DNA of 64,000 nucleotides, from positions 4,760 to 68,759 of the forward strand of contig CAWIYP010000003.1 of assembly GCA_963840335.1 (NCBI GenBank). Direction: 5' to 3'. The position numbers and the translations under genes are program-made. The notes beneath the pieces are model-generated. The model saw nothing but the letters and a program-made list of their open reading frames with translations. It was not told the origin of the DNA and ran no database searches. This stretch comes from an uncultured Chloroflexia bacterium. Its GTDB lineage: Bacteria; Chloroflexota; Ktedonobacteria; Ktedonobacterales; JADMIN01. Positions 26,788 to 60,224 of this stretch are shown in pieces. Each line of letters starts with the position of its first letter. The stretch's first letter is position 1.

Positions 26788-27224
26788 GGGGGCGGCTGAT
26801 GAAGTTTTAGAAAATAGGACGAGCATTTCGCCGTAGCAAGCTGGCGAATACATTCGCGCCTGGATGGCCTGCGGGCCGCGAAGCCCGCCTTCGCGGGCTG
26901 GGTCTCGGCGAACATGGTAGCGGATGAGCAGGCGGATCGTCTGGCGTCGCCTGGTTCTTAGTCCGCGTCGGCGGACTTTGCGGCGGAACGCCATCCAGGC
27001 GCGGTTTCAACCGCCAGCCGCCCCGCGCGGCGCTCGCGTTCATTTCTAAAACATCATAAGCCGCGGCTAGGGGCGTGCGCGCCACGAAGCCTGCCTGCGC
27101 AGGCTGGGTTTCCGGCAGCGCATCGAGTGTCTGGCGGTGTCACAGCGACTGCGAAGGCGGAACCCAGGCCGCGCAGGCGGCCTTTGTGGCGCGCACGCCC
27201 CTAGCCGCGGCTTCAGCCGCCCCC
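26788..27224. repeat. Compound palindromic repeat cluster: an A-type inverted pair with a B-type inverted-pair element nested in its left arm
   Basis: GGGGGCGGCTGA (26788-26799) plus AGCCGCGGCTAGGGG (27059-27073) together equal the reverse complement of the intact right arm 27197-27224. The 259-bp insert at 26800-27058 has 13/14-matching ends TGAAGTTTTAGAAA / TGATGTTTTAGAAA (reverse complement). Confidence 0.8.
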
Positions 27225-27230
27225 GCTTGC

Positions 27231-27608
27231 TTAGTTGCGCCCCGGCTCGCCATCGCCAAAAGCATCGCCGAAATCGTCGCTATCTTCGTCAACACTGAGG
27301 GTGTCGCCCTGGTCGGCGCGATACTCATCGCTGAAGAAGCCCACTTCGGTTCCGTTGTAGGTGTTCACCAGCAAATCCTCGCGCGGCACATCAGCGGAGA
27401 GGACGAGGTCTTCGTCTATCCGCTCGATCAGCCGCGCGATTTGCTCGCGCTCCAGCGTCTTCTCCAGAATCAGCGTGCAGCGGACATCGGTCTGCGTGAA
27501 GTGCAGATCAACCGTCGCGAGGCGCTCGCCTTTGACCATGACGTGGTAGCCCTCGGATGAGGGGGTACGAAAGTGGCGGTCGAACCGCAGTTGATCCAGA
27601 TCGTCCAT
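27231..27608 (-). CDS. Hypothetical acidic protein (125 aa)
   Basis: ORF with coding-like composition; Asp/Glu-rich C-terminus (SVDEDSDDFGDAFGDGE). No family recognised. Confidence 0.55.
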   Translation of the reverse strand: MDDLDQLRFDRHFRTPSSEGYHVMVKGERLATVDLHFTQTDVRCTLILEKTLEREQIARLIERIDEDLVLSADVPREDLLVNTYNGTEVGFFSDEYRADQGDTLSVDEDSDDFGDAFGDGEPGRN

Positions 27609-27837
27609 GTCGCTCCTCCTGACGTTCGCCGCCGCCAGCTTGCTCTTTTGGTAGCACCTCGCCGATAGCGTAGCTTCTCACAGCCTTCTCCGCATGCTAT
27701 CACACCGCGACGCCCCCGTGCGAACAGGCCAATTCACGGCCCCAGCGCTGGCTTGCGCGCCAACTTGGCCCTTGCCCCGCCCCATCTCCCGACGTACCAT
27801 AGGCTACGAATAGCCTGCGCGGCGCGCTGTCGCGGGG

Positions 27838-30047: not shown

Positions 30048-30095
30048 GCGCGTGAACCTGCGCGCCGTGCGGCTGGCGGGAGTGCGCCAGCCGAC

Positions 30096-32550: not shown

Positions 32551-33158
32551 GCCGCGCGACGGCGCGGGAGCGGGCGGTGATTAACGTATTGATTGGGAAA
32601 TGACCTGGCGCGCGTCGGCTGGCGAAAGATGGTGCTGTATCTTTGCCAGACATCGTTCTCTTAGGTGAGAACGCTCGCCACTGAGGCTTATCGGCCAGGC
32701 GCGCGCCGTTAGTTCTTAAAACGTATCTTTTTATTTTGACTCTTGTCCAATTCCAACGCCACAGGCAAGCGCATGAAATGGTCGAACACCAGCGGCGCCT
32801 TGCTTCATTGCTTGTCGCTGTCGCGCCGCAATGGGTCAGGTTACGCTCAGACACGCTGACTCTCGCCGAAGACCAGGTCATAGTGAACCTTTCCTCCATC
32901 ACTGGGGCCGTGCGTCGCCCAGATTGCCAACAATACTTACGCCGTGTCCACAGCTGGTTTCCCCCTGTATGCGCAAAGTGGCGCAACACAGTTGCGAAAT
33001 GTGGTTGTGAAGGCCAACCGCGCAGGATTGACACCTATCGGACGCCGACATACACTTCGCCACAGTTGGCAGGTTGGGGCTGTCTTGTGACCAATCCTCA
33101 TGGGCCTGCTCGCCACGCGACAAAGCACGCTACCGTGTGACAGTGAGGAGCGCTCTTT

Positions 33159-34856: not shown

Positions 34857-34877
34857 CGAAGGCGAAGGAGGCACTAG

Positions 34878-36235: not shown

Positions 36236-36257
36236 AGGGGCGGGTTCACCCGCCCCT
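36236..36257. other. Isolated GC-rich hairpin sharing the GGGGCGGGT..ACCCGC core of the A-type repeats
   Basis: AGGGGCGGGTTCACCCGCCCCT is a perfect palindrome. It lies in a 400-bp noncoding gap between convergent genes. Confidence 0.45.
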
Positions 36258-43795: not shown

Positions 43796-43800
43796 GGGGT

Positions 43801-44085
43801 GGTTGAATCGAAGCGGGGCGGGCAGCGTATCGCCGCTCGGCTGGCGAATAAATTCGCGCCTGGATGGCCTGCGCGCCACGAAGTGCCGCCTTCGCGCACT
43901 GGGTTTTCGACGGCGCTGGAATGCGCAGGGCAAGCGATACTGCTCGCTACGCGCACAACGGGTACGGGAATGACCCAGTCCGCGGCGGCGGACTTCGTGG
44001 CCCGCACGCCCTTAGCCGCGGGTTTACCCGCCCCTGCTCCCGCGCGCCGTATCCGCATCAATTCGTTAAATCGCTTCAACCGTCG
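43801..44085. repeat. Composite palindromic repeat (B-type arm + loop + A-type arm, reverse orientation)
   Basis: B arm is at 43840-43912 (TTCGCGCCTGGATGGCCTGCGCGCCACGAAG...). A arm is at 43974-44081. The A arm's reverse complement is ~90% identical to 57670-57768. Confidence 0.8.
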
Positions 44086-44092
44086 GCACGCT

Positions 44093-45076: not shown

Positions 45077-45420
45077 GGAATCCTTCTTTCTGTGGCGCGG
45101 TGTTCACCCCATTGCCTGCCCTTCAGACGCCAGCCTCCTTATCTGATCCGCAAAATAGCGTACATGGCGCCGCTCACAGTGCCGTCTCACACACACGAAC
45201 GCCATCAACACTTCCTCACAACATCCTCTCGGCATGGGGCCAGTTCCCGCCAGTCCCCGATTTGTCCTGCCAGCAATCGCCGCGTCATCCGTGGGCGCCC
45301 CTTGCGCCCGGCGCAGCCAGCGCGTATTGCTAGTGGCTGGAAAATAGAACGTGTGTTCAGCCAGACAGCGACAGGCGCGGGGATAGCGGAGACGCCGCGC
45401 CGTGGAGAGGAGACATTCCG

Positions 45421-46453
45421 ATGACGACGCCAACACCAGCGACGATCACCTACACCATTCCCGGCGCGCGGACGCTGGATCAACTGAACGAGCCGACGGT
45501 GGACGGCCACCCAGACGAGGACGCGCGCGAGAACTGCGTCGCGGCCTCGCTCGCCGAGGCGCTGCGGATGCTGACGGGGAATCAGACCTTCGATGGCGAC
45601 ATGCTCAAAGACGCGGTGTATGGCCAGGGGTACGTCGGCGTCCAGTCGGCCCACGCCTACATCGCGTATTGCGCGGCGCGGGGCGTCACGCTGGCGGCGG
45701 TCAGCGCCGCGACACAGGCGGGCCTCGTCGCCGCCATCCACCACGCCGTCAGCGCGGGAGAGCCGACGCTGGTGACGATGCCCTCGGACTGGAACACCGC
45801 GCCCGCAGACCCGCGCCATCCCAGCGGCTCCACGCATGTCGGGCTGGCCGTGGGCGTCGGCCCAGCCGCCATCCGCGTGATGAACCCGTGGCATGGCTTC
45901 ATGCAGGACGCGAGCGACGCCTGGTGGGCCGCGCGTCTCTGCGAGGGTGAGGTCTGGACGCTGCGAAAAGCCGCCGCCACGACCACCAGCGCCGCGAAGA
46001 TCAGCGTCCCGGCGGGCTGGCGCGACGATGGCGCGACGCTGACCGCCCCGAACGGCATCGCGGTGGTGCGCGGCATCCGCGAGCGGGTGCTGGGCTGGCC
46101 GGGCGGCTGGCCCGCGTGGGACACGCCGCTGGAGCCAGAGCGCCATCTCGACCAGTTGGAGCTATTCAATCCCGCGCTGGGCGGCGGCGCGCAGCAGGTC
46201 TTCCGCGCCTCCGCGCTGGAGTGGACGCCCACCCATGGCGTGCTGCTGATGCCCATCGGCGCAGAACTGCTGGCCACCCGCGCCGCGCTCGCCACGGCCC
46301 AGACGGCGCTCACCGCCGCGCAGAGCGAAAACGCCGCCCTGCGCGCGCAACTGGCGGCGGCGCAGACGGCGCAAGCTCCGACAGCGCGCGCAGGCGCCCA
46401 CCTCCGACGAGTTGACGCGAGCGGCGGCGCACAACTTCGGCGCAGCGGGCTAG
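45421..46453 (+). CDS. Hypothetical protein with a tentative papain-like Cys/His motif and a C-terminal Ala/Gln coiled coil; probable frameshift near 46390-46400
   Basis: RBS GGAGAGGAG. ENCVAASLAEAL and GSTHVGLAVG are candidate Cys/His sites. Tail LATRAALATAQTALTAAQSENAALRAQLAAAQTAQAPT. As sequenced the ORF runs to 46959, antisense through a TPR fragment. Shifting frame in the (CG)n run gives AQAPTSDELTRAAAHNFGAAG-stop at 46451-46453. Confidence 0.6.
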
Positions 46454-46848
46454 GCGCTGGGGGTGTCGCGGATCGTCGCTTCGATCAACGCGCAGAGTCG
46501 GGTAGCATCCTGGAGGTCTACCGGACTAAAGCTAGCGTACACGTCACGCGAGCCCTGGGCGGCGGCCAGCGCATCACGGAGCAGGCGCAGGCGCTCGGCG
46601 GGTGTTGTGGCGTCGGCGGCCATGTCGCGGTAGAGCAGCGCAATGTTGAATTGGGTCATCGCCCAGTCGGCGGGGGCGGCCTCGCGGGTGCGGACGGTCA
46701 GCGCCGCGCGGTAGGCCTCCACGGCCTCGGCGAGCAGCCGCGCGCGCCTGCCCCTCGGCCAGCCCCGCCTGGTCGCTCAGCGCGACGGCCAGGTTGTTCT
46801 GGGTCATCGCCCAGTCGGCGGGGGCGGCCTCGCGGGTGCGGACGGTGC
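46450..46848 (-). pseudogene. 3' fragment of a TPR-repeat protein gene (no N-terminus, internal frameshift)
   Basis: Repeat units read ...TVRTREAAPADWAMTQ(N/F)N(L/I)A... Two perfect 47-nt copies sit at 46652-46698 and 46790-46836. The frame changes at ~46728-46740 in a (GC)n run. Homology ends abruptly near 46848. Confidence 0.65.
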
Positions 46849-46859
46849 AGGGCGAGCGC

Positions 46860-47021
46860 GGTGGAACCGACTACCGCCGCTTCTTCTTCCGCGATGACAA
46901 GCTGGTGGGCGGTGTTTTTCTCGGCAGCCCCAAGGGACGCAAGAAGGTCGTGGAGCTGATTCGCGCGGGGACGGTCTGCCGCACGGCGAGCGAGCGGGCG
47001 ACGCTCTTCGACGTGCGCTAG
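46860..47021 (+). pseudogene. 3' fragment of a pyridine-nucleotide-disulfide/FAD oxidoreductase gene
   Basis: Reads DYRRFFFRDDKLVGGVFLGSPKGRKKVVELIRAGT, resembling the C-terminal dimerisation segment of NAD(P)/FAD oxidoreductases. No upstream body is present. It abuts the TPR fragment. Confidence 0.45.
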
Positions 47022-47131
47022 CGTGCCATCCAGCGCGCGTGGCGAGGTTGTGTCCTCGCCTCTCTGGTGATCTTGGGAAAGCCGCCGGAGTCATCCACTT
47101 CAGCGAGACGCGGGCGGCGGCGCGGCTCTCC

Positions 47132-48343
47132 CTACGGCGCGAGATACTCCAGCGTGGCGCGGGCCAGCGTCTCCAGCCCGATGGCGAGCGAGTCCTCGGC
47201 GATGTCGAAGCGGGGGCTGTGGTGCGGCGCGTCAATGCCGTGCGTCGGGTCGCCCGCGCCGACGAAGAAATAGCAGCCCGGCGCCGCCTCCAGGAAATAG
47301 GCCATGTCGTCGCTGGCCGCCTGTCGCTGATCGCCGCCGGGAACCTGCTCCTCGCCCACCGTCGCGATGGCCGCGCGCCGCACCAGCGCCGCCATCGCTG
47401 GATCGTTCACGCAGGCTGGGCAGCCGCCGCGTATCTCATAATCCACCGCCGCGCGCATGCCCTCGGCCACCGCGTGCGCCACCTCGCCAATGCGCCGCCG
47501 CAGCAGCTCGCGATCTTCCGCCGCGTAGGCGCGCAACGTGCCGCTCATCTCCACGACATCCGCGATGACATTGAATGCGCCGCCACCGTGAATCGCGCCG
47601 AAGGTGACCACGGCGGGATTGAATGGCGAGACCTCGCGCGAGACCAGGGTTTGCAGCGCCGAGATGATCTCCGCCGCGACGACGATCGGGTCCACCGCTA
47701 GGTGTGGCATCGCGCCATGCCCGCCGCGTCCATAGATGCGCAGCGCAATCTCATCCGCGCTGGAGAAGACGGCCCCCGCCTGCGCTGAGACCTGCCCCAC
47801 GGGCACAGGCGTCCAGAGGTGTAGGCCGATGGTCGCGTCCACCTTTGGGTGATGCGCCACGCCATCCGCCAGCATCGCCAGCGCCCCGCCGATGCGCTCC
47901 TCCGCTGGCTGGAAGACGAAGAGCGCCGCCCCAGCGAACGACTCGCGCCGCGCCATCAGCAGCTCGGCCAGAGTCAGCGCGATGGCGATGTGCCCATCGT
48001 GGCCGCAGGCGTGCATTACGCCGGGGCGCCGCGAGCGCCAGGGGCGCGTCGCCTCGTCGGCCTCCTCCTCGATGGGCAGCGCGTCAATATCGGCGCGAAT
48101 CAGCAGCGTCCGCGCGGGGCGGCTGCTGGGGGCCAGCCCGCGGAGCAGCGCGACCACCCCATGCCCGCCCACGCCTTCCTGCGGCTCCAGCCCCAGCGCG
48201 CGCAGCCGCTCGGCGATCTCGCGGGCAGTCTCTACCTCCTCGAAGGACAGCTCTGGCCGCTGGTGGAAGTAGCGGCGTAGCTCGACCAGACGCTCACGGC
48301 GGCGCTCCACATCCTCGGTGATCTCATCGCGCGCTGCTGGCAT
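47132..48343 (-). CDS. M20-family amidohydrolase (N-acyl-amino-acid amidohydrolase/hippurate hydrolase type)
   Basis: Motifs YFHQRPELSFEE, MHACGHDGH, FQPAEE and GGHGAMPH. RBS GAAGGAG before ATG 48343. Confidence 0.9.
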   Translation of the reverse strand: MPAARDEITEDVERRRERLVELRRYFHQRPELSFEEVETAREIAERLRALGLEPQEGVGGHGVVALLRGLAPSSRPARTLLIRADIDALPIEEEADEATRPWRSRRPGVMHACGHDGHIAIALTLAELLMARRESFAGAALFVFQPAEERIGGALAMLADGVAHHPKVDATIGLHLWTPVPVGQVSAQAGAVFSSADEIALRIYGRGGHGAMPHLAVDPIVVAAEIISALQTLVSREVSPFNPAVVTFGAIHGGGAFNVIADVVEMSGTLRAYAAEDRELLRRRIGEVAHAVAEGMRAAVDYEIRGGCPACVNDPAMAALVRRAAIATVGEEQVPGGDQRQAASDDMAYFLEAAPGCYFFVGAGDPTHGIDAPHHSPRFDIAEDSLAIGLETLARATLEYLAP

Positions 48344-48546
48344 GCTCTTCTCCTTCGGCGGGCCGCGCCGATCATCTGGATGCTCGCCCGATACCAGGGG
48401 TCGCGCCGCCCCGCGCGACGCGCCCCGCCTGGGCATTGTACACTGCGAGAGGCTGTGGCGGGGCGCGTAGGCGCGTCGCAAAGCCTGCGCCGTAAATCCG
48501 TGGCGCCGCGTGACGTCTCATCTGGCGTGGAGGGATAACAAAACGC

Positions 48547-49023
48547 ATGGCCGAACCGATGACGACCGATGACCTGCTGGCGCTGCTGGCCAGTGTGCCC
48601 GATCAACTCGACGCCGCGCTGTCCGCCAGCACGCGCCAGGAACCAGCGCCGCAGCCCGGTGTGACGACTGGCGAAGGCGACTGGACGACCAGCGAGCTGG
48701 TGGGCCACCTCTGCGACTCCGCGCGCTATTGGGGTGGCCGGATGCGCCTCGTTGTCTACGAAGAGACACCAGAGCTACCCGTCTATGACCAGGACACGTT
48801 CGTGCGGCTGGCGGCCTATCGCTACCTCTCGCCAGAAACCCTGGCCCAGGAGTTCCGGCTGATCAGCGCGGCGAATCTGGCGCTGCTGCGCGGGTTGCGC
48901 CCGGAGCAGTGGGAGCGCGTCGGACTCCATGCGGAGCGCGGGCAGCTCACCCTGCGCGATATCGTCGCTATCGAGGCGCAGCACGAGCGCGACCATGCGC
49001 GGCAGATCGCCGCGGGACGCTGA
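48547..49023 (+). CDS. DinB-family (DinB_2) protein
   Basis: Four-helix pattern with ELVGHLCDSARYW and IEAQHERDHARQI (His triad). Confidence 0.85.
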   Translation: MAEPMTTDDLLALLASVPDQLDAALSASTRQEPAPQPGVTTGEGDWTTSELVGHLCDSARYWGGRMRLVVYEETPELPVYDQDTFVRLAAYRYLSPETLAQEFRLISAANLALLRGLRPEQWERVGLHAERGQLTLRDIVAIEAQHERDHARQIAAGR

Positions 49024-49302
49024 GCGAGCGCCGCGTGAATTTTCTTTGCTCGCGTCAATGCCTGTTGTCACACAGGGAGCGATGGCGTATACTCGGCGAG
49101 AAAGGCGAAGCGCGGGCGGTGGCCATGCTCAACATGTGGCCTGCCAGCAGCGATGCGCCTGTGTGGAGATGCGCGTTTCCCTGATGGCCATACATGACCA
49201 CAGCCCGAGCGCTGGGCGGCGGGGCGTGTCCGTTGACCGATAACCCGCTTCGGATTCCCGCCCGCGCGTCTGTTCGCAAGGTGCAGGAGCTTTTCAGAAG
49301 TT

Positions 49303-50004
49303 ATGGATAGCTCGATTACAGCGTCGTCCAGGCGTCAGATCTCTCTGATCGAGACGCTGGCGATTCTCGTCATCTTTGTCCCTGGATTGTTCCAGGGGTC
49401 CATTGTTACCACCATCTCGTTCGTCGGCGTGGCGATCGCGGTGATCGGCTGGGGCTATGCGATGTTCACCGCCGCGCGCGTACGCGCGAACGGCTGGGTG
49501 GTGTTGCTCGGCATTAGCTTCGTAATCGCACTCGCGCTCGTGGGATACTCGCTTATCCGTGAGGGGAGCACAGGACCGCTGGGCGCCTCGCAGCTTGGCT
49601 TCTTGTCGCTCGCCTTCCTCACGCTTGGCTACACAACTATGGGTGGCGACGCGCAGGTGATTGAACGTGGTATCGCGGCTTTCTATGGTGGCTGGGGCTT
49701 GCTCACGCTGGTCATCGGCGGCACGCTTGTTGGCGGCGCCATCGGCTCCACCATCAGCGCGGCGGCTGGCTACATCATCGCGTTCGGCTTCCAGCTCTAT
49801 GCGGTCGCTGGCGTACTCGGCGCCTTCGCGTGGGTCATTGGCCTGATCGCAGGATACCGCACGAAGGCCTGGGGCTGGTTCGCGCTCATCGTGTTGCTAC
49901 CCGCAATCGGCGCGTTCATGTTCGGCCTCTTTGGCCCCACCCGCCACGACGTGCTGATGGCGCAGGAGCAGACGCGCCAGCGCAAAGCGGTCGGCCTGAG
50001 CTAG
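49303..50004 (+). CDS. Hypothetical multi-pass membrane protein with a PLD-nuclease-N-like C-terminal helix pair
   Basis: Six or so hydrophobic segments. C-terminal region WGWFALIVLLPAIGAFMFGLFGP. Confidence 0.7.
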   Translation: MDSSITASSRRQISLIETLAILVIFVPGLFQGSIVTTISFVGVAIAVIGWGYAMFTAARVRANGWVVLLGISFVIALALVGYSLIREGSTGPLGASQLGFLSLAFLTLGYTTMGGDAQVIERGIAAFYGGWGLLTLVIGGTLVGGAIGSTISAAAGYIIAFGFQLYAVAGVLGAFAWVIGLIAGYRTKAWGWFALIVLLPAIGAFMFGLFGPTRHDVLMAQEQTRQRKAVGLS

Positions 50005-50027
50005 CGCGCCTTCCACATTGGCGATAC

Positions 50028-50074
50028 AATCCGCGCGCCCGATGGTCTTTAGCATTGGGACGCGCGGATTTTTT
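50028..50074 (+). terminator. Rho-independent terminator after the 49303-50004 gene
   Basis: AATCCGCGCG (50028-50037) pairs with CGCGCGGATT (50061-50070), followed by a run of six T (50069-50074). Confidence 0.65.
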
Positions 50075-50277
50075 CATGTCACGAGAGATGGAGCGCCTGA
50101 GAAATCGTCTAGAAATAAGGCCCATTTGCTGTCTTCACGCCATTGCGGGGCGTATAATCTCTCACAAGGATCAAAGGCGGCGCGAGCGTCCCAGGGAATA
50201 GGCGATAAGTCACGCGCATGGCGCGCATCGTTGTGTAGCGCCTATCCCAGAAAAGACCCGGGAAATGGAGTGACGCT

Positions 50278-50556
50278 ATGCCATTGCACTGGACTGATCT
50301 GCTCATCATCGTCGTGCTGGGTCTGATATTCTTCGGGCCGAAGCGCCTGCCAGAGATGGGGGCGGCGCTGGGCAAGACGATTCGCGAGTTCCAGAAATCT
50401 ATGCGCGAAGTGACGAATCCTGAGCCAACAACGTCCTTAACGCCAAACGCGGCGCAATCCGTGCAGCCGCCAACACCCGCCGCCGAGACCCCCTCCCGCG
50501 AGCCGCTGACTGTGGCGGATGACGCCCCCCATGCGCGCGAGGAGACGGTTCGCTAG
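50278..50556 (+). CDS. tatA: Twin-arginine translocase subunit TatA/E
   Basis: Reads LLIIVVLGLIFFGPKRLPEMGAALGKTIREFQKSM. A perfect TATAAT hexamer lies at 50153-50158, ~120 nt upstream. Confidence 0.9.
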   Translation: MPLHWTDLLIIVVLGLIFFGPKRLPEMGAALGKTIREFQKSMREVTNPEPTTSLTPNAAQSVQPPTPAAETPSREPLTVADDAPHAREETVR

Positions 50557-50601
50557 CTTGGGGTCAGCGGCGCCACGCCGTACATGGGCAGGGAGCGTGA
50601 G

Positions 50602-51396
50602 ATGGCAGCGATAGACACGCGACAGACCGAGCCTCAATCAGCCATGCCGGGCGATGAGCCAGAAGCAGAGCTTGCTGTCATGACCCTGGTGGAGCATCTC
50701 GAAGAGTTGCGCCGCCGGTTACTCATCTCGCTCATCGCCATCGCGGTAGGCAGCGTCGTCGCGTTCATCTTCTGGGATCCCATCTTTGGCTTCCTGCTCT
50801 CACCGATGCCACGAGTGGTCGCAGGCAGCGCGAACATCATGCAGCAAGGCAAGCTGGTCATTTCTGATCCCACCGGCCCCTTCATGGTGGCGCTCAAGGT
50901 CTCCATCGGCGTCGGTATCGCGCTCGCCGCGCCCGTCATACTCTATCAGGTGTGGGGCTTCCTCTCCCCGGCGATGACGAATAAAGAGCGCAAATACGCC
51001 GTGCCCTTCACGCTGCTTGGCGTTGGCCTCTTTGTCGCTGGACTGATCGTCGGCTTCATTGTCCTGCGCTTCCCCATCGAATGGCTGATTAGCTTCGGCT
51101 CCAACCGCTTCATCCCGCTCATCTCCGCCGACGCCTACCTCACGTTTGTCACCTACTTCCTGCTGGCGTTTGGCCTCGTCTTCGAGTTGCCGCTGGTACT
51201 CACCTTCCTCGGTGTTCTCGGCGTCATCAATAGCCAGATGCTGCGGGCCAAGCGGATGTACATCCTCTTCGGGCTGTGGGTGCTTTCGTGCTTCATCACC
51301 CCAGGCGCCGACCCGATCAGCCCGATCATTATCGCGGTGGCGCTGACCGCGCTCTTTGAGTTGAGCGTCTTGCTCCTGCGTTTCATCAAGCGATGA
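50602..51396 (+). CDS. tatC: Twin-arginine translocase subunit TatC
   Basis: Reads LVEHLEELRRRLLISL, followed by six TM segments, with FITPGADPISP. Confidence 0.9.
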   Translation: MAAIDTRQTEPQSAMPGDEPEAELAVMTLVEHLEELRRRLLISLIAIAVGSVVAFIFWDPIFGFLLSPMPRVVAGSANIMQQGKLVISDPTGPFMVALKVSIGVGIALAAPVILYQVWGFLSPAMTNKERKYAVPFTLLGVGLFVAGLIVGFIVLRFPIEWLISFGSNRFIPLISADAYLTFVTYFLLAFGLVFELPLVLTFLGVLGVINSQMLRAKRMYILFGLWVLSCFITPGADPISPIIIAVALTALFELSVLLLRFIKR

Positions 51397-51403
51397 GCGC
51401 GAC

Positions 51404-52489
51404 ATGACGCAGGCGGATGCCAGTGAGCTATCGCCGGCGCGTATTTCGCGCGGGCCTGTAGCGCTGGTCTACAGCCCCTACGCTGGCTCAGCGCATGGCG
51501 CGCATCCGCAAGCGCTGCTGGAAGCTGCGGGCATCCGTGTGGGGCTGGCGCTGCCAGTCGCGGCGCTCGACGGCGCCGAGGCGCAGGGGCCGCGCTGGCG
51601 TGAGGCGGGCTGCGTGGCGGTCGTCGCGGCGGGCGGCGATGGCACGGTAGGCGCGGTGGCCAGCCATGCCGCCGAGGTTGATCTGCCGTTGGGCATCTTG
51701 CCGCTGGGTACCGCGAACGACATCGCCCGCGCGCTCGGCATTCCGATAGCGCCTGACGCCGCCGCGCAGATCATCGCGCAGGGCGCCCTGCGGCGGATGG
51801 ACGCCGGGCAGGTCATCCCCGCGCAGACGGCGCCGCACGCCAGCGCCACCGACCCCGTGGCGGCGCGCGGGGCATATTTCCTGCATGCGATGTCCCTCGG
51901 CCTGAACGTCGAGTTCGCCCGCCGCGCGACCAACGTGGCGCAGCGGCGAATTTGGGGTAAGCTAACGTATGTCGTCTCAGCGATCGAGTCACTAGAGCAT
52001 CTGCGGCCCACAGAAGTGACGCTGCGGTTCATCGGGACGCCAGGCGGGGCGAGCTTCGAGACGCGCTGCGAGACGACATTCTTGATGGCGATCAATCTGC
52101 CGGTGTTTGGCGGACGGCTGGAGCTGCGCATGCCAGCGATTCGCACGGATGACCGCATGCTGGATGTAATCGTCGTCGAGACGCCAGAGCCACACGGCGC
52201 GCATGCGGCCTTCGAGGCCGCGCTGGAGGCGCTCGCGGGGGCGGCGCGGCTGTTTGGCGTTGGCGCGAAGGCTGCGACGACAACAGACACGGAGCCTCCC
52301 GCGTGGGCGCCAGAGGGTGTGGCGCTGCCAGGGGGACGCTGGTATCGCGCGCGGTCAGTCGAGATTGCGACCGCGCAGCCCGTGGAACTGACGCTGGATG
52401 GCGAGTTGCGCGGGCAGACGCCAGCGGTGGCGCGCGTGGCGCCGCATGCCGTGTGGGTGATCGCTCCAGCGGGCGCCGAAGAGGCGTGA
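51404..52489 (+). CDS. Diacylglycerol-kinase-family lipid kinase (YegS/BmrU type)
   Basis: Motifs VVAAGGDGTVGAV and LGILPLGTANDIARALG. Confidence 0.85.
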   Translation: MTQADASELSPARISRGPVALVYSPYAGSAHGAHPQALLEAAGIRVGLALPVAALDGAEAQGPRWREAGCVAVVAAGGDGTVGAVASHAAEVDLPLGILPLGTANDIARALGIPIAPDAAAQIIAQGALRRMDAGQVIPAQTAPHASATDPVAARGAYFLHAMSLGLNVEFARRATNVAQRRIWGKLTYVVSAIESLEHLRPTEVTLRFIGTPGGASFETRCETTFLMAINLPVFGGRLELRMPAIRTDDRMLDVIVVETPEPHGAHAAFEAALEALAGAARLFGVGAKAATTTDTEPPAWAPEGVALPGGRWYRARSVEIATAQPVELTLDGELRGQTPAVARVAPHAVWVIAPAGAEEA

Positions 52490-52534
52490 GGGTCGCGCCT
52501 GAGTTGTGATGATGTGAGGCGACAGGACGAGAAG

Positions 52535-55342
52535 ATGAGCGGCAACGACAAGGGCAAGTATCGCTTTCCCAAGCGGCGCACGAATCGCCCCGGCCAGGGT
52601 GGCGCGAGCCAGGGTGGCGCGAGCCAGGGGAATACCAGCCGTGGCAAACGCCGCGACGAGAAGCCACGCCATCCGCCGCTGGAGACGCGACTCAGCGCGA
52701 CCACCAGCGAGCATCGCCGCCGTAGCCGCGAGTTGGGCGTCGAGTCGCAGCCCGTCACGCGCGCGTGGACGCTGGAGTGGGACGACGAGGCGCGGACGTT
52801 GGTAGACGCTTTCGCGGCGGAGCAGCCTTATCCCCTCGACCCCTTCCAGCTCGAAGCCGGACAGCATCTGGCCGAGGGCCGTTCGGTGCTGGTCGCGGCG
52901 CCCACGGGAACTGGCAAGACGGTCGTGGCGGAGGTGGCCATCTGGCTGGCGCGGCGCGAGGGCAAGCGCGCCATCTACACGGCGCCGATTAAGGCGCTCT
53001 CGAACCAGAAGTTCCGCGACCTGCGGGCGCGCTATGGCGCCGACGAGGTGGGCCTGCTCACCGGCGACATCGTCGAGAATCCCAGCGCGCGTATCGTCGT
53101 GATGACGACCGAGATCTATCGCAACATGCTGCTAGAGGGCCTGCGCGCCGCGCATGTCACTCCCCAGGCCGAGGCGAGCGAGCTGCTTGCGGAGGTTGAT
53201 GCGCGCCAGAACCCACGGATCGAGGCGCCCATCGCGCCCTCCGATGTCGCGGAGATGGCCCGCCGCGCCCGGCTGGATGAGGAGCTATCCAGCGTCGGCT
53301 GTGTGATCTTCGATGAGCTGCACTTCCTCAACGACCCGGAGCGTGGGCCAGTCTGGGAGGAGGCGATCATCCACTCCCCGCCGCATGTCATCTTCGTCGG
53401 CCTCTCCGCCACGGTGAGCAACGCCGATGAGCTGCGCCAGTGGATCGAACAGGTGCATGGCCCGATGGGGCTGGTCTACCACACCGAGCGCTCCGTGCCG
53501 CTGGAGCACTTCTACTTCCTGGATGGCCAGTTGCGGCTGGCGCAGAATGCCGATGGGCAGCGTGTCGAGCGCTTCCCTGGCATCGGCGGCGAGACGAAGC
53601 TGGCGCGTCTGCTCCAGCGCGGGCGGCGCTACACCTTCGATGGCGAGACACGCGCCCCCGCCGCCGCTCCAGCGGCCAGCAAGTCCGGCGAGCCAGCCTC
53701 GGCCAGCGCGGAGGAGGCAACGCCTCCAGAGCGTCCCACACCGGAGCCGGGCGAAGTGCTGACGGCGCTGCGCACAGCGGAGATGCTGCCCGCGCTCTAC
53801 TTCCTGCCGGGGCGGCGTGCGGTGGAACAGGCGGCGGAGAGCGCGGCGAGCCACCTCTTCACCACGCCTGACCAGCGCCAGCGGCTCCACCGCGAGGTGC
53901 AAGAGTGGGTGCGCGCATTGCCTGCCGAAGACCAGCGCCTCGATCAGGTGCGGCGGCTGGCGTTGCTCTTGCCGCGCGGACTGGGCTTCCATCATGCGGG
54001 GCTGCTGCCGGGCCTGAAGGTGATGGTCGAGACCCTCTTCCAGCGTGGCGAACTCAAAGCCGTCTTTGCCACCGATACGCTGGCGCTGGGCGTCAACATG
54101 CCCGCGCGCAGTGTCGTGCTGGGGAGCCTGAGCAAGTTCGACGGCACGCAGATGCGGCTGATGACGCCGAATGAATACCAGCAGCTTACCGGGCGCGCGG
54201 GCCGCCGTGGCATTGACGCGCACGGAGCCGCCATCATCCCCTACTCGCCGTGGGACGCCTTCGAGCCTGCGTTTTCCGCGCTGACGGCGCCGCTACTGCC
54301 GGTGACGAGCGCCTTCACCGTGCGCTACAACACCGTGCTGAACCTGTGGCGGCCTGGCGATCTGACGCGACTGCGGAAGGCGGTGGGCGCCAGCCTGCGC
54401 GAGTTCCAGCGGCGGCGAGTCGTTGTGACGGCGGGCCACCGTGCGCGTCGCCATGAAGATGTGCGCGCGCGCTACGAGCCAGGCGCCGAGGAGACGCCGG
54501 CACGCGCCGAGCGCCATGCCACAGGCCTGAGTCGCGCGGCCCTGGCCGAGCTGAACGCGACGATCTACGTGCTGCGGGCGCTGGGCTATATTGGCGAGGA
54601 TGACGCGCTGAGCGTGCGCGGACGCATGCTGCGGTCGATCTTCCATCCAGCGGGGATCATGATCTGCGAGCTGGTCTTCAGCGGCGCGCTGGATGAGCTT
54701 AGCCCGGCGGAGCTGGCCGAGGTGATGAGCTGGTTCACCTTCGACAGCGACCGCTCACTGCGCAATGGCTTCCTCATGCCGGAGAAGGTGCTGCAAACGC
54801 GGCGGGTGGCGCAACGGACACAGCGCTTTGTCCAGCAATTCGAGTATGACGAAGGGCTTGACATGAGTCCCGGCATCGTGGACGCCTTCCATAGCGTCGC
54901 GCTGAACTGGGCGCGCGGCGTGACGCTGAGCGGCCTGCTCAACCGCATCGAGCTGGCGGAGGGCGACCTGCTGGTGACGCTGAACCAGACGATCGACCTG
55001 CTGCAACAGACGCAGAGCGCGCTGGCCCAGACCCTCGACGCGCGCGACCTCTGGCGGCCTGTCGGCCCCGACGCGCGCGGTCGCCGTCAGCAGGCGCTGG
55101 CGCAGACCCGCGCGCGCATGGATGCGCTGCGCCCGCGCCTCAGCGAGGCCTGGCGCATGATGCTGCGCGGCAGTGTCGCCATGAGCCGCGCGATTCCGGC
55201 GATGGCCACGCCCGCACTGGCCGAGACGGAGGAGGCGGAGGCCGCGCTCGCCGCCCTGCCTCCGCTGGCGATGGCGGAGGACGAAGACCCCGCCGAGGTC
55301 GCCGCCGACCTCGCCGAGGAGGCGCCGGGCGCGGAGGGGTGA
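52535..55342 (+). CDS. Ski2/HelY-like DEAD/DEAH-box helicase with a basic N-terminal tail
   Basis: Motifs AAPTGTGKT, FDELHFLND, LSATVSN, HHAGLLP and TGRAGRRG. C-terminal Ski2-type arch/DSHCT-like region. The track ORF starts at 52514. A 15-nt tandem duplication (GQGGASQGGASQG) lies at ~52594-52623. Confidence 0.88.
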   Translation: MSGNDKGKYRFPKRRTNRPGQGGASQGGASQGNTSRGKRRDEKPRHPPLETRLSATTSEHRRRSRELGVESQPVTRAWTLEWDDEARTLVDAFAAEQPYPLDPFQLEAGQHLAEGRSVLVAAPTGTGKTVVAEVAIWLARREGKRAIYTAPIKALSNQKFRDLRARYGADEVGLLTGDIVENPSARIVVMTTEIYRNMLLEGLRAAHVTPQAEASELLAEVDARQNPRIEAPIAPSDVAEMARRARLDEELSSVGCVIFDELHFLNDPERGPVWEEAIIHSPPHVIFVGLSATVSNADELRQWIEQVHGPMGLVYHTERSVPLEHFYFLDGQLRLAQNADGQRVERFPGIGGETKLARLLQRGRRYTFDGETRAPAAAPAASKSGEPASASAEEATPPERPTPEPGEVLTALRTAEMLPALYFLPGRRAVEQAAESAASHLFTTPDQRQRLHREVQEWVRALPAEDQRLDQVRRLALLLPRGLGFHHAGLLPGLKVMVETLFQRGELKAVFATDTLALGVNMPARSVVLGSLSKFDGTQMRLMTPNEYQQLTGRAGRRGIDAHGAAIIPYSPWDAFEPAFSALTAPLLPVTSAFTVRYNTVLNLWRPGDLTRLRKAVGASLREFQRRRVVVTAGHRARRHEDVRARYEPGAEETPARAERHATGLSRAALAELNATIYVLRALGYIGEDDALSVRGRMLRSIFHPAGIMICELVFSGALDELSPAELAEVMSWFTFDSDRSLRNGFLMPEKVLQTRRVAQRTQRFVQQFEYDEGLDMSPGIVDAFHSVALNWARGVTLSGLLNRIELAEGDLLVTLNQTIDLLQQTQSALAQTLDARDLWRPVGPDARGRRQQALAQTRARMDALRPRLSEAWRMMLRGSVAMSRAIPAMATPALAETEEAEAALAALPPLAMAEDEDPAEVAADLAEEAPGAEG

Positions 55343-55405
55343 TGGATGGCGCGGAGTCGTGGCTGGCGAATCTACGCGCCAGCCACTTTCCCGCTTGTAA
55401 GCTGG

Positions 55406-55756
55406 CTACTCTGGGCGCACCGCGGCGCCGAAGTCGAGGAATACGCAGGGGTCATCGCCGACGACCCAGCCGTCGTGGCCAGGAGGGATGGTCGCGAGAT
55501 CGCCTGGCCCGATTTCCAGCGCTGTACCATCGGCCAGGACGACATGCGTCCGACCGGAGAGCACATAGAGGAAGTGGTTGACCTGGCAGAGGTCCGTCCC
55601 AGCCATTGGCTTGATGTCTTGGCTCCAGCGCCAGCCGGGTTGATAGGTAATGCGCGTAACGACCCGGTCGCCGAATTTCACCGATTCCATCGTGGTATTG
55701 GGTGGGTCGCGCCGCTCATCAGGCGAGTTGAAGTTCTTCTTCGCGAGGCTTGTCAT
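55406..55756 (-). CDS. Cupin-domain protein
   Basis: 116 aa. Reads HFLYVLSGRTHVVLADGTALEIGPGDLATIPPGHDGWV. Confidence 0.8.
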   Translation of the reverse strand: MTSLAKKNFNSPDERRDPPNTTMESVKFGDRVVTRITYQPGWRWSQDIKPMAGTDLCQVNHFLYVLSGRTHVVLADGTALEIGPGDLATIPPGHDGWVVGDDPCVFLDFGAAVRPE

Positions 55757-55760
55757 GAGA

Positions 55761-57512
55761 CTACCCTTTCACGCTGCGACAAACAATCTCCCACGGCCAG
55801 AGGTCTAGAGTGGAGCGGCGCCGTTCTACACGCTGCGCATACCCGCCGCTCATCCGCCTGTAGTATCCACGCGCATCCGGGCCACCGCTATCAGCAATAG
55901 CATGCAGTGGCGCGTGCCTGGCGGCGGGCACGCGCTCACCCCGCCTGCGTGCCCAGTCCTTCAGCAGGGCCTGGGCGGCGTTGTGGCCGGGGGCGCCCAT
56001 CACGCCGCCGCCGGGATGGCAGCCGGAGCCGCAGAGGTAGAGGCCGCCGACGGGTGTGCGGTAGCGGGCGACTTCCGGCGCGGGGCGCAGCGAGAAGAGC
56101 TGGTCGGGCGTGATCTCGCCCTGGAAGATGTTGCCGTTGGGCAGGCCGTAGCGCGCCTCGATGTCCACTGGGCTGAGCATCTGGCGGTCAATGACGGCGT
56201 CGGCGAAGTTGGGCGCGAAGCGCGTCATCGTGGCGATGATGCGGTCGGCCATGTCGTTGCGCTCCTCGTCGCGTCCACTCGCGGTCCTTCAGGTGGTAGG
56301 GCGCGTACTGGCAGAACATCGAGATGGTGTGGTAGCCCTGCGGCGCCACGGTGGGGTCGGTGGACGGACTGCATGTACGCCTCGATCCACGGCTTGCGCG
56401 AAAGCTCGCCGTGCGCGGCGTCCTCGTAGGCGGTCTGCACCCAGTCTGGCGTCGGGCTGATCTCGCAGGAGCCGAAGTGCTGGAGGCCGGGCGCTGTCCC
56501 GGGCAGGCAGGTGAAGCTGGGCAGCTCGCGCAGGGCGATGTTGAGCTTGAAGATGGCGCTATCGGTCTTGAACTGGCTGATGCGGCGCAGGAAGTCGGCG
56601 TCGAGTCCGGCGTCGTCGCAGAAGCGCTGGAAGGTCGTCTTGGGGTCCACATTCGAGAGCACGGCGTCCGCGCGTAGCTCCTCGCCACCCTCCAGCCGCA
56701 CGCCCTCGACCCGCCCGTTGTTGATCAGCAGCTCCTTGACGCGCGTGTTCAGGCGAATCTGCGCGCCGTGGGCCTCAGCGCTGGCGGCCATCGCGTAGCT
56801 GATGCGCCCCATGCCGCCGCGCACGTAGCCCCACATGCCCTTCTCGCCATTGACCTCGCCGAACATGTGGTGCCACATGACGTAGACCGAGCCGGGCGTC
56901 TTCGGGCCGATGAACGCGCCGATGACGCCCTGCCCCGCGAAGGCCGCGCGCATGTAGTCCGACTCGAAGTAGTCGGCCAGCATGTCGTAGAGCGAGCCGA
57001 ACATCAGCCGCCGGTAGATTTCCTCATCCTCGCCCTTGAAGCGCGCGGCGAGGTCGGCGACCGACTGGCGGCTCCTCCAGCAGGATGGGGTTGAGGATTT
57101 CGGAGGCGCGGTCGAAGAACTCCAGGAACTTCGGGTAGATCTCGGCGTCGTGCGGCGAGAGCCGGCGAATGCTCTTCGATCGTCTTCTCGGTGCTGGCGC
57201 GGAAGAAGAGATGCTCGCCATCGAGGATAGCGGCACGAACATCTGCGGGTCTTTGACGTAGGCGTCGAAGCCGTATTTATGCAGCTCCAGATCGCGGATG
57301 ATCTCTGGCCGCAGCAGGCTGACGACGTAGGCGCAGGGTGACATGGTGAAGCCGGGGAACGGCTCCTCCAGCGTGCAGGCGCCGCCGACGCGGTCGCGCT
57401 GCTCCACGACGAGCACGCGCTTGCCCGCCCGCGCCAGATAGCCCGCCGCGACCAGTCCATTGTGTCCCGCGCCGATGATGATCGCGTCCCAGTGGTCGTG
57501 CTGTGTCGCCAT
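55761..57512 (-). pseudogene. Phytoene-desaturase-family (CrtI-like) NAD(P)/FAD oxidoreductase with at least five frameshifts
   Basis: Conserved segments are spread over three frames: WDAIIIGAGHNGLVAAGYLARAGKRVLVVEQRDRVGGA; AILDGEHLFFRASTEKT; IRRLSPHDAEIYPKFLEFFDRASEILNPILLEE; SVADLAARFKGEDEE...GMWGYVRGGMG...; DPTVAPQGYHTISMFCQYAPYHL; MADRIIATMTRFAPNF...LYLCGSGCHPGGGVMGAPGHNAA. Frame changes occur near 57228, 57170, 57065, 56345 and 56270. Confidence 0.8.
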
Positions 57513-57669
57513 TGCCTGGTCGCTCCCTTCTCGCCTCGCGCGGGTCGCGTCATCGCGCCGCGTTGTGGGCATTCTATCAGATGCGGGCCAGCCCGCGAGA
57601 GATGCTATACTGCAACTTGGCTGGCGAGTAATGGTATTGAACGATTGCGAGGCGGCTGGCAGTTGATGC

Positions 57670-57855
57670 GGTTGAACGAATTGATGGGGATACGGCGCGC
57701 GGGAGCCGAGGCGGGTAAAGCCGCGGCTAAGGGCGTGCGCGCCACGAAGCCCGCCGACGCGGGCCGGGTCCTGGCGTTCGATTTTTAGTCTGCGCAGGCG
57801 GACTTCGCGGCGGAACGCCCTCCAGGCGCGGCTTGAGCCGCCAGCCGTCCCCCAG
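57670..57855. repeat. Composite palindromic repeat (A-type arm + short loop + B-type arm)
   Basis: A arm is at 57670-57768 (GGTTGAACGAATTGATGGGGATACGGCGCGCGGGAGCCGAGGCGGGTAAAGCCGCGGCTAAGGGCGTGCGCGCCACGAAGCCCGCC...). B arm is at 57786-57855, in reverse orientation. Confidence 0.8.
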
Positions 57856-57920
57856 CCACGCTCCCATCACTCGCCCGCCACTGAAGCTATCCTCATCTCA
57901 CTATTGGCAGGGCGCGCTCA

Positions 57921-59867
57921 ATGAGTCTCATCGGTGTCGCGGGGCATGTGGATCACGGCAAGTCGACGCTCGTCATGGCGCTGACGGGCATTGACCCTGA
58001 CCGACTCGCCGAGGAAAAGGCGCGTGGCATGACCATCGACCTCGGCTTCGCGTGGCTCACGCTCCCCGGCGGGCGCGAGGTCAGCGTGGTGGATGTGCCG
58101 GGCCATGAGGCCTTCATCAAGAACATGCTCGCGGGCGTCGGCAGCCTGGATGCCGCGCTGCTGGTCATCGCCGCCGATGAGGGCGTGATGCCGCAGACGG
58201 CGGAGCATCTGGCCATCCTCGATCTGCTGCGCGTGGGCAGCGGCGTCGTCGCGCTGAACAAGGCTGATCTGGTCGAGCCGGACTGGCTGGAGCTGGTGCG
58301 CGCGGAGGTCGAGGAGGTGTTGGCGCCGACCACGCTGGCGGGCGCGCCGATCATTCCCTGCTCCGCTGTGACGGGCGCCGGGCTGCCGGAACTGCTGGCC
58401 GCGCTCGCCGCTGCGCTGGAGCATGCCCCCGCGCGCCGCGACCTGGGGCGTCCGCGTCTGAGCGTGGATCGCGTCTTCACCATCACCGGCTTCGGCGTGG
58501 TCGTCACGGGCGCGCTACAGGATGGCGCGCTGGCCGTGGGGCAGGAGGTCGAGCTGCTGCCCTCGCAGCGCCGCGCGCGCATTCGCGGCCTCCAGACGCA
58601 CAAGCGCAAGATCGAGCGCGGCGAGCCGGGCGCGCGGCTGGCGGTGAATCTCGCTGGCGTGGAGAAGAGCGACCTCGCGCGCGGCGACATCCTCTCGCTG
58701 CCGGGGCGGCTGCGGACGACGCAGACCATCGATGTGCGGCTGGAGACGCTGGCCAGCGCGGCGCGTCCCATCGCGCACAATGCCATGCTCGACCTCTATC
58801 TGGGCGCCGCCGAGACCCAGGCCCGCGTCATCCTGCTGGACACCGAGGCGCTGGCGCCGGGCGCGTCCGGCTGGGCGCAGTTGCGGCTAGCGCGGCCCTT
58901 CGTCGCGGCGCGGGGCGACCGCTTCATCCTGCGGACGCCTTCGCCGAGCGAGACGGTTGGCGGTGGGGTGGTGGTCGAGCCAGCCGCGCGGCGGAGGCGC
59001 CGCTTCGATCCCGCGACCATCGCCCGGCTGGAGTTGCTGGCGCGCGGCGATCCGGCGGACGTGACGCTGACGGCGCTGCGAGGCGAGCGCCGCGCGACCA
59101 CGGCGAAGGCTCAGCGCGCCGAGAGCTTCGCTGGGCGCGCCGAGGCTGACCTGCCGCAGGCGACAGGGTTGCCAGCGGAGGATGTGGCCGACGCGCTGGC
59201 CGAGCTAGCGACACGCGAGCAGGCGCGACGCATCGGCGCGCAGTGGTACGCTACCAGCGAATGGCAGCGGCTGCGCACGGCGAGCGACACCGCGTTGGCG
59301 ACCTATCATGCGCGCTATCCGCTGCGCCCCGGCATGCCGCGCGAGGAGTGGCGCGCACGGCTGGGCATTCCCCCGCGCGAGGCGGCGGAGGTGGTGGCGG
59401 CGCTGGCGGCGGAGGGCGCGCTGGCCGAGGCGAGTGTCGCGGGGGCTGGCGGCGAGCGTCGCGGCTGGCTGCGGTCGCCAGAGCATCGCGCTGAGCCGAC
59501 GCCAGCGCAACGGGCGACGGTGGATGCCCTGCTGGCCCGCTTCGCCGCCGCGCCCTTCGCGCCGCCCACACGCGCGGAGGTGGAGGCCGAGCTGGGGCCA
59601 GAGCTGACGCAGGCGCTGCTCGACCGTGGCGAACTGGTACGGGTCAGCGAGAGCATCGTCCTGACCCCCGCCGCGTTGGCCGAGGCGACCCGGCGCATCG
59701 TCGCGCATCTGCGCGCCCATGAGACGATCACCGTGGCCGAGGCGCGCGACCTGCTCGACACAACGCGCAAGTATATGCTCGCCATCTTCGAGTATCTCGA
59801 CGAACAGCGCATCACCGAGCGGCGTGGCGACGACCGCGCGCTGGGTAGCGCGGCGGTGGGTGGATGA
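57921..59867 (+). CDS. selB: Selenocysteine-specific translation elongation factor
   Basis: G domain motifs GHVDHGKSTL, DVPGHE and LNKADL. EF-Tu-like domains II and III. C-terminal winged-helix repeats (ITVAEARDLLDTTRKYMLAIFEYLDEQRIT). Confidence 0.92.
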   Translation: MSLIGVAGHVDHGKSTLVMALTGIDPDRLAEEKARGMTIDLGFAWLTLPGGREVSVVDVPGHEAFIKNMLAGVGSLDAALLVIAADEGVMPQTAEHLAILDLLRVGSGVVALNKADLVEPDWLELVRAEVEEVLAPTTLAGAPIIPCSAVTGAGLPELLAALAAALEHAPARRDLGRPRLSVDRVFTITGFGVVVTGALQDGALAVGQEVELLPSQRRARIRGLQTHKRKIERGEPGARLAVNLAGVEKSDLARGDILSLPGRLRTTQTIDVRLETLASAARPIAHNAMLDLYLGAAETQARVILLDTEALAPGASGWAQLRLARPFVAARGDRFILRTPSPSETVGGGVVVEPAARRRRRFDPATIARLELLARGDPADVTLTALRGERRATTAKAQRAESFAGRAEADLPQATGLPAEDVADALAELATREQARRIGAQWYATSEWQRLRTASDTALATYHARYPLRPGMPREEWRARLGIPPREAAEVVAALAAEGALAEASVAGAGGERRGWLRSPEHRAEPTPAQRATVDALLARFAAAPFAPPTRAEVEAELGPELTQALLDRGELVRVSESIVLTPAALAEATRRIVAHLRAHETITVAEARDLLDTTRKYMLAIFEYLDEQRITERRGDDRALGSAAVGG

Positions 59868-59910
59868 GGGGTGAAGGACAGGCAGCAGCGTCGCGTATCG
59901 GCGAGGCGTA

Positions 59911-60178
59911 GGGGCGGGTAAACCCGCGTCTAAGGGCGTGCGCGCCACGAAGCCCGCCTGCGCGGGCTGGGCCTTGGCGAGTATTAGCGCGCAGACGCAT
60001 GCGGTTTGTCTTGCGCCACTTGGCTGCTTGGTCGTCTGTGTGAATGAGCGCTCCGACACCGTGAAGACCTGACGCAGAACGACCCTCGTCCAATGTAAGG
60101 CGCCGGTCCGCCGGAACCCAGGCCGCGTCGGCGGCCTTCGTGGCGCGCACGCCCTTAGCCGCGGGTTTACCCGCCCCC
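59911..60178. mobile_element. MITE-like A-type element: ~63-nt terminal inverted repeats around a 141-nt core
   Basis: 59911-59973 reads GGGGCGGGTAAACCCGCGTCTAAGGGCGTGCGCGCCACGAAGCCCGCCTGCGCGGGCTGGGCC. It is nearly identical to the reverse complement of 60115-60178. The element fills most of the gap between selB and the kinase gene. Confidence 0.75.
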
Positions 60179-60224
60179 CTTGGCGCTATTTCGTTAATCC
60201 TCATCACTCGCCCCGCCCTCGACG

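Follow-up and report, generated by a model that had tools for sequence, protein, structure and literature searches.

Repetitive extragenic palindromes (REPs), their paired forms (REPINs) and the REP-associated tyrosine transposases (RAYTs) of E. coli and Pseudomonas have been described as systems of short, GC-rich, palindromic intergenic repeats in high copy number, arranged mostly as inverted doublets, in which the same repeats, inverted with respect to each other, flank a Y1 transposase gene of low copy number and the repeat stems carry compensatory changes (Nunvar 2010; Bertels & Rainey 2011, PMC3116915; Ton-Hoang 2012). Since compensatory change in REP stems is textbook knowledge, a conserved hairpin alone would be an ordinary finding. 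Another group of Y1 transposases, subclass 1.2, was characterized as low-copy, generally devoid of the typical terminal structures of IS200 and mostly limited to Cyanobacteria and Bacteroidetes, with no association with REPs reported (Quentin et al. 2018, PMC6006769). Here, we consider a stretch of 64,000 nucleotides (hereafter the window, at its full length; assembly GCA_963840335.1, contig CAWIYP010000003.1, hereafter C3, positions 4,760 to 68,759) from an uncultured soil bacterium of the order Ktedonobacterales, which holds ten copies of a multi-hairpin module of about 61 nt, and a transposase gene elsewhere in the same genome that this module brackets. The module and its gene share all of the features of the REP/REPIN-RAYT systems named above, and most likely represent a variant, so far little described, of a system that is familiar in kind.

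The genome is a metagenome-assembled genome (MAG) of the Ktedonobacterales (Chloroflexota), comprising 3.38 Mb in 40 contigs with 64.5% GC, and is 67% complete. Module copies were collected by iterated nhmmer, seeded with the ten window copies, and number about 154 in the genome. The module (consensus CTGGCGGTTGAAACCGCGCCTGGAGGCCTGCGGGCCGCGAAGCCCGCCGACGCGGGCTGGG) is laid out as 5'-CTGG, the hairpin H1 (GCGgtTGAAacCGC), the linker GCCTGGA, the hairpin H2, CGAAG, the hairpin H3 and TGGG-3', so that each module contains three hairpins, of which H3 provides the inner stem; H2 takes the form GGCC-tgcg-GGCC, GGCG-ttc-CGCC or GGCGGC-n4-GCCGCC. Convergent inverted pairs, in which a plus copy is followed by a minus copy, number 68 and take in 136 of the 154 copies; the most frequent spacer length in these pairs is 54 bp. 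When folded as single-stranded DNA, five out of five diverse copies adopt H1 together with H3 as the minimum-energy structure, at folding energies that are ordinary for GC-rich sequence (z of -1.2 to -2.9 in five copies). Within subfamilies, diversity peaks in the inner stem pairs and the loop centres (pi 0.3-0.7), and the unpaired linker and the closing pairs are near-invariant within the genome.

The first-pass annotation of the window had drawn attention to H3, reporting ten stem-loops whose 6-bp stems differ in sequence and stay complementary, and all ten are found in the sequence. Some particulars need amendment. The stem had been placed directly after a GAAG; CGAA does precede it, but the last G of the GAAG is already the first base of the stem, which thus overlaps the core, and in most copies an outer A-T pair lengthens the stem to 7 bp. 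Five copies (26961, 27167, 43978, 57788 and 60121) lie in the opposite orientation, with the GAAG on the other strand. The bulged copy, which had been given as 43884-43899, spans 43883-43899 (17 nt), and the G-T pair noted at 57788-57803 exists on the plus strand but becomes a C.A mismatch once the copy is read in the direction of the repeat. Of the nine regular copies in the window, eight pair perfectly, against a mean of 2.2 when the 3' arms are re-dealt among the copies (P=0.0003), the ten window copies being five inverted pairs of one repeat family and not ten independent samples.

The annotation had also allowed that a larger set of copies might reveal many non-complementary stems. Instead, 84.3% of 134 regular copies genome-wide have perfect H3 stems, compared with 26.6 +/- 3.5% after shuffling of the arms (maximum 39.6% in 2000 shuffles), and 97.3% of the pair cells are paired versus 84.4% in the shuffled sets. 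Seven fully complementary stem types occur in the genome, namely GCCCGC (40 copies), GTCCGC (39), GGCCGC (18), GCCTGC (9), GTGCGC (5), GCCCAC (2) and ACCCGC/GCGGGT (about 12), and each of the stem positions 1-5 shows two or three pair types, position 6 alone being invariant. Backbones that are identical (0 differences in 45 positions) bear H3 stems that differ at 2-4 bases and are all complementary. In the common 176-bp core unit, the two ends are invariably unlike, one being an A end (GCCCGC, H2 GGCC..GGCC) and the other a B end (GTCCGC, H2 GGCG-TTC-CGCC). Much of the within-genome covariation is variation between subfamilies and between the unlike ends of amplified units, and the independent events are far fewer than the copy number.

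A link between the stem-loop and a HUH/Y1 transposase encoded elsewhere in the genome, which the annotation had proposed looking for, does exist: the module with its hairpin brackets an IS200-like Y1 gene on contig C17. A search with PF01797 finds three Y1 genes in the genome, and the C17 gene (C17:72073-72486), which is single-copy and encodes 137 aa, is the sole intact IS200-like Y1 transposase among them. The protein scores 79.6 bits against PF01797 and 74.9 bits against the NCBIfam IS200/IS605 model NF033573 (cut-off 55), and its closest solved structure is ISHp608 TnpA (E=2e-9), with DHVHLL (HuH) and YIARQ (Tyr) aligned. One module lies 61 nt upstream of the gene, a second overlaps the stop codon, and an inverted module follows 35 nt further on. 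The open reading frame (ORF) itself ends inside the module (C17:72476-72486), where CTGGCGGTTGA supplies the last codons (..EEAGG) as well as a TGA in the H1 loop; in the eight relatives examined, the homologous region does not run into the module. The motif YIARQKEHH fits the Y---Q--HH signature of TnpA_Y1 subclass 1.2 and the HVH motif is kept, and it is by this signature, together with the short core and the low copy number, that the C17 transposase is assigned to subclass 1.2.

For comparison with other genomes, a covariance model (R1) was built from 37 diverse module copies, with H1 and H3 only as its structure. Among the 23 closest homologous loci (L004-L025 together with L029), about 20 have a plus module upstream and a minus module downstream of the gene, L023 giving no hit; these loci belong to Chloroflexota (Chloroflexia), Cyanobacteria, Gemmatimonadota and Armatimonadota, and the homologous gene is bracketed likewise in 12 of 12 Ktedonobacterales relatives. 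Many loci carry an extra module in the same orientation 3' of the gene (e.g., L001, L008-L010 and L150-L152). Across 62 flank copies, 97.7% of the cells are paired, against 79.5% in shuffled sets; pairing in H3 reaches 99.7%, and 4 of its 6 pairs show two-sided changes, as do 5 of 6 pairs in H1, where four pair types are seen at one position. These flank copies have a covariation score of 0.464, as compared with 0.140 after shuffling (none of 500 shuffles reaches 0.464), and slid controls give at most 0.07. The earlier suggestion that the fold rather than the primary sequence is kept is thus supported by the covariation of the stems across lineages and by the association with the Y1 gene.

HVH plus Y[IV]xxQxxHH is present in 73 of 80 homologous loci, and inverted repeats bracket 62 of 77 homologous loci in many phyla, nine of which were inspected by eye and fold into 2-3 hairpins. 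Inverted repeats, 60-145 nt long, also enclose the more distant subclass 1.2-like genes (L026-L083; Planctomycetota, Verrucomicrobiota, Acidobacteriota and others); at the nine inspected loci, the hairpins that these repeats form are unrelated in sequence, and where the upstream copy differs from the downstream one, the differences are compensated. The module itself reaches high numbers elsewhere, with 64 copies in Nodularia, 91 in another cyanobacterium and at least 150 each in Longimicrobium and two Chloroflexia. Within the order, it is present in 32 of 41 genomes; a close Y1 homologue occurs in 18 genomes, all of which have modules, and all nine module-free genomes are without the homologue. 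The relatives carry 1-3 diverged paralogues of the gene.

We consider it probable that the module belongs to a REPtron/REPIN-like (or TIRtron-like) system, in which H1 and H3 are predicted to be the hairpins that a Y1 transposase of subclass 1.2 recognizes on single-stranded DNA, and H3 is most likely the candidate DNA recognition site of this enzyme. From the gene association and the covariation, on which this explanation rests, we infer recognition of the hairpin by the protein, as well as binding, cut sites, an active strand and a spread of module copies driven by the transposase. On the model of IS608 TnpA and E. coli TnpA-REP, the transposase would bind the folded hairpins on single-stranded DNA and would read sequence-specifically the invariant unpaired nucleotides, namely the linker, CGAAG and the C at either end of the H3 loop. 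The enzyme would then cut and rejoin nearby, so that pairs of modules would be copied to new sites. If folded copies alone serve as substrates, the inner pairs would be free to change as long as they stay complementary, and the compensatory pattern would follow; in this proposal, the stems stay complementary while their sequence drifts because only foldable copies replicate. A wider claim, which we put forward tentatively, is that subclass 1.2 may be the enzyme of a multi-hairpin REPIN-like system that crosses phyla, the repeats of which reach 60 to over 150 copies in genomes of Ktedonobacterales, Chloroflexia, Longimicrobium and Nostocales-type cyanobacteria, and the derivatives of which integrate at the apex of the H1 loop of older copies without target duplication; this would be a structure-targeted mode of insertion, not described for Y1 transposases.

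Modules also sit inside longer units which resemble miniature inverted-repeat transposable elements (MITEs) and have different outer arms, here called T1 to T4. T1 is a 243-bp MITE with the terminal inverted repeat (TIR) GGTTCTACCAAAAA; all 10 of its complete copies show a target duplication of 9 bp, and in its interior an A-module is separated from an inverted B-module by a spacer of 54 bp. T1 occurs on contigs C9, C11, C15, C16, C27, C34 and C36 (e.g., C9:84826-85068) and not in the window. TIRs combined with a target duplication of fixed length, as in DDE-type MITEs, are seen in the T1 carrier only, and because of them T1 would have been moved by a DDE-type enzyme with the modules carried along; no full-length insertion sequence with T1 termini was found in this assembly. 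The arms of T2, T3 and T4 carry ATGATGTTTTAG, ATGCAATTTAAC and ATGATGTTTAATTCG, respectively, and units armed with them lack a target duplication, as do bare pairs. Genome-wide, about 30 of the 45 T2/T3/T4 arm termini lie directly against the 5' half of an H1, the subfamily of which varies, and this position points to insertion at the loop apex (between GGTTG and AAACC) of an older module. Such apex insertions of armed units yield nested arrays, an example of which lies in the window at 26799-27057. None of the T1, T2 or T3 outer arms was found beside the Y1 genes in 15 loci, so that these arms cannot be tied to the transposase.

Several observations weigh against the transposase-based explanation. 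The T1 carrier moves by a different mechanism, and hence part of the copy number and of the A and B stem counts is due to hitch-hiking. The C17 protein fails the curated RAYT model NF047646, with 17.9 bits against a cut-off of 80. Among the 32 relatives of the order that bear modules, 14 are without a detectable close subclass 1.2 gene, including one single-contig genome with 75 modules, so that copies can persist, or spread, without the enzyme; most of these 14 assemblies are incomplete, and the relatives are mostly fragmented MAGs. The types of mismatch do not agree on an active strand either. In all copies of the genome alignment, read in module orientation, the non-Watson-Crick pairs of H3 are 21 A.C versus 5 G.T, and those of H1 are 17 G.T versus 4 A.C. 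The H1 changes are for the most part CpG to TpG on the module strand and are found on different backbones. The two hairpins point to opposite strands, and no single strand can be named. Lastly, the covariation among the 62 flank copies was scored on an alignment fitted to the structure of the model, which favours pairing, though the hairpins are short and their register is unambiguous.

The regular association of unlike stems within amplified units raises the question of whether descent and hitch-hiking might account for the whole pattern, with the stems marking only a few subfamilies or unlike unit ends, which other machinery amplified recently and which are intact because they are young. The constant joining of A and B ends in the 176-bp core speaks for such a history, as do the intact 9-bp duplications in all ten T1 carriers, the correlation of stem type with H2 type, and a mismatched GCCCGC/GCGGAC stem, the 8 occurrences of which form one lineage. 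As the whole story, however, it is improbable, since flank copies from different phyla covary at the same stem positions with 99.7% pairing, diversity sits in the paired columns with the unpaired linkers invariant, and identical backbones carry different perfect stems. These same backbones, in which stems change at several bases and remain complementary, are also what would be expected if one arm of the hairpin were copied onto the other during replication, restoring complementarity without selection for function. Quasi-palindrome template switching of this kind is established for imperfect palindromes in bacteria, and single-mismatch intermediates (C.A, G.G and G.T) do exist among the copies. 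Templated correction nevertheless leaves unexplained the fixed distance of the hairpins from conserved unpaired motifs and the adjacency to Y1 genes across phyla; moreover, the exchange of whole hairpins by recombination between subfamilies would look alike, and H1, H2 and H3 types do occur as mosaics. The within-genome data do not separate templated correction from selection or recombination. We regard it as unlikely to be the sole cause, with marginally more in its favour than descent, and template-switch correction and recombination between subfamilies may well add to the pattern alongside selection.

The annotation had further left room for a role of the stem in RNA. The hairpins might, for example, act as terminators or as stabilizers of mRNA 3' ends, as some E. 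coli REPs do, and their pairing might be kept for this reason. All four sites in the window are intergenic, one between tandem, two between convergent and one between divergent genes, and the hairpins are GC-rich and stable. The intergenic and convergent positions would suit such a role; the site between divergent genes does not. Rfam searched at gathering thresholds gives no match in the whole window, H3 is followed by TGGG or TAGG and not by a T run, and a terminator scan calls none of the six H3 sites in 43500-60500. In addition, the inverted pairs mean that either transcript would hold both orientations, and the conserved partner of the module is the gene of a DNA transposase. A role in RNA is thus unsupported and, in our judgement, highly improbable, and recognition by the Y1 transposase remains the explanation that we favour.

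The ten copies in the window occupy four sites. At the first site, the A-type copy on the plus strand at 26841..26902 (C3:31600-31661; H1 GCGAATACATTCGC, H2 GGCC-TGCG-GGCC, H3 GCCCGC/GCGGGC at 26883-26898) and the B-type copy on the minus strand at 26957..27017 (C3:31716-31776; H2 GGCG-TTC-CGCC, H3 GTCCGC/GCGGAC at 26961-26976) form the left and the right half, respectively, of a nested T2-type unit of 259 bp at 26799..27057 (ATGAAGTTTTAGAAA...TTTCTAAAACATCAT). This unit is inserted, without target duplication, at the H1 loop apex of a C-type module on the plus strand at 27048..27108 (C3:31807-31867; H3 GCCTGC/GCAGGC at 27089-27104), the H1 of which is split by the insertion, with its 5' half at 26788-26798; the flanks GGCGGCTG (ending at 26798) and AAGCCGC (from 27058) together restore an intact H1, GGCGGCTGAAGCCGC. 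The inverted partner of the split module is a C-type copy on the minus strand at 27163..27223 (C3:31922-31982; H3 GGCCGC/GCGGCC at 27167-27182). The second site lies between convergent genes and pairs an A-like plus copy at 43841..43903 (C3:48600-48662), which has the bulged H3 GTG(C)CGC/GCGCAC at 43883-43899, with a C-type minus copy at 43974..44034 (C3:48733-48793; H3 GTCCGC/GCGGAC at 43978-43993).

The remaining two sites flank selB, the product of which has 82% identity to those of Ktedonobacterales MAGs. Between the divergent amine-oxidase-like gene (minus strand) and selB (plus strand), a C-type plus copy at 57708..57768 (C3:62467-62527; H3 GCCCGC/GCGGGC at 57749-57764) is paired with a B-type minus copy at 57784..57844 (C3:62543-62603), whose H3, GTCCGC/GCAGAC at 57788-57803, contains the C.A mismatch of the module orientation mentioned above. 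Between selB and a convergent histidine kinase gene, a C-type plus copy at 59911..59971 (C3:64670-64730; H3 GCCCGC/GCGGGC at 59952-59967) and a C-type minus copy at 60117..60177 (C3:64876-64936; H3 GGCCGC/GCGGCC at 60121-60136) are separated by a spacer of 145 bp. The selB flanks of 14 relatives hold no full module, and for this reason the window insertions are regarded as lineage-specific. A genus-level search for empty sites, using window:57000-60700, found selB, with synteny not conserved and downstream regions that do not align.

The two other Y1 genes of the genome stand apart from the C17 gene. The ORF on contig C25 (L002:1456-1908) is a truncated IS200-like sequence, whose match to the Y1_Tnp profile of 121 positions extends over 2-89 only, and is probably a decayed copy. 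The gene on contig C38 (L003:1351-1833, minus strand) is a canonical RAYT (NF047646, 104.8 bits), AT-richer than the genome and flanked by its own inverted hairpin, GGCGTCAACT-N6-AGTTGACGCC, which has about 2 occurrences in the genome. The gene seems to follow immediately on a truncated aminotransferase-like ORF, a position that may reflect a recent insertion. This RAYT was considered as the mobilizing enzyme of the module and rejected, because its own flanking hairpin, in about 2 copies, is unrelated and the module is not nearby.

The significance of the system lies in the finding that a Y1 subclass reported without cognate repeats is bracketed by a conserved multi-hairpin module in several phyla, and that this module is amplified in groups in which REP/REPIN biology has hardly been studied, namely Chloroflexota, Gemmatimonadota and Cyanobacteria. 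The module and the transposase form a candidate enzyme-substrate pair for single-strand DNA transposition, which is testable, and the diverse copies provide a natural mutant series for the importance of stem pairs and unpaired bases. A concrete lead on target choice comes from the nested insertions at the hairpin apex, which lack a target duplication. In soil MAGs, the module explains many of the breaks between contigs and many clusters of repeats. A limited literature search found nothing on subclass 1.2 published after Quentin et al. 2018 and no matches to the module sequence strings.

Insertion sequences and MITEs that target REP hairpins include IS1397, ISKpn1, ISPpu9/10 and IS621. Like these, the T2/T3/T4-armed units sit precisely in a hairpin, the H1 loop of other modules; unlike them, they do so without target duplication, and the inserted unit itself bears the same modules. 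With the insertion sequences of the IS200/IS605 family (IS608 and ISDra2), the system shares the HUH/Y1 fold, the HuH motif with a catalytic Tyr and hairpins beside the gene ends, and the second same-orientation module on the 3' side at many loci is reminiscent of the left and right ends (LE/RE) of that family. It differs from them in that the gene is single-copy in this 67%-complete genome rather than a multicopy insertion sequence, and in that the ends are inverted. The TIRtrons and TIRYT of Di Nocera, De Gregorio & Rocco (2013, PMC3733652), compared here as far as their description extends, are likewise tyrosine transposase genes with long flanking inverted repeats, some of them doubly palindromic, and with moderately abundant dispersed copies as dimers or clusters; in contrast to that description, the present module is found in high copy number, several lineages having at least 130-150 copies per genome. 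The agreement with the published subclass 1.2 (PMC6006769) comprises Y---Q--HH, HVH, a core of about 137 aa, low copy number and occurrence in Cyanobacteria, whereas bracketing by inverted repeats, seen at 62 of 77 loci in many phyla, and the amplified repeat family of the closest clade set the present genes apart. The REP/REPIN-RAYT systems remain a close parallel. Where REPs have a GT[AG]G tetranucleotide at the 5' foot of the hairpin, the module copies are divided: on the complementary strand, the cyanobacterial and some C-type copies read GTAG or TTAG 2 nt 5' of H1, which resembles the GTAG tag, and the A, B, D and E types read CCAG. The enzyme, however, is an IS200-like subclass 1.2 transposase and not a RAYT (class 2), the repeat is not a single-hairpin REP but a multi-hairpin module of 50-65 nt (H1, an optional H2, and H3) with a conserved single-stranded linker, and the module family, with recognizable sequence, spans at least four phyla.

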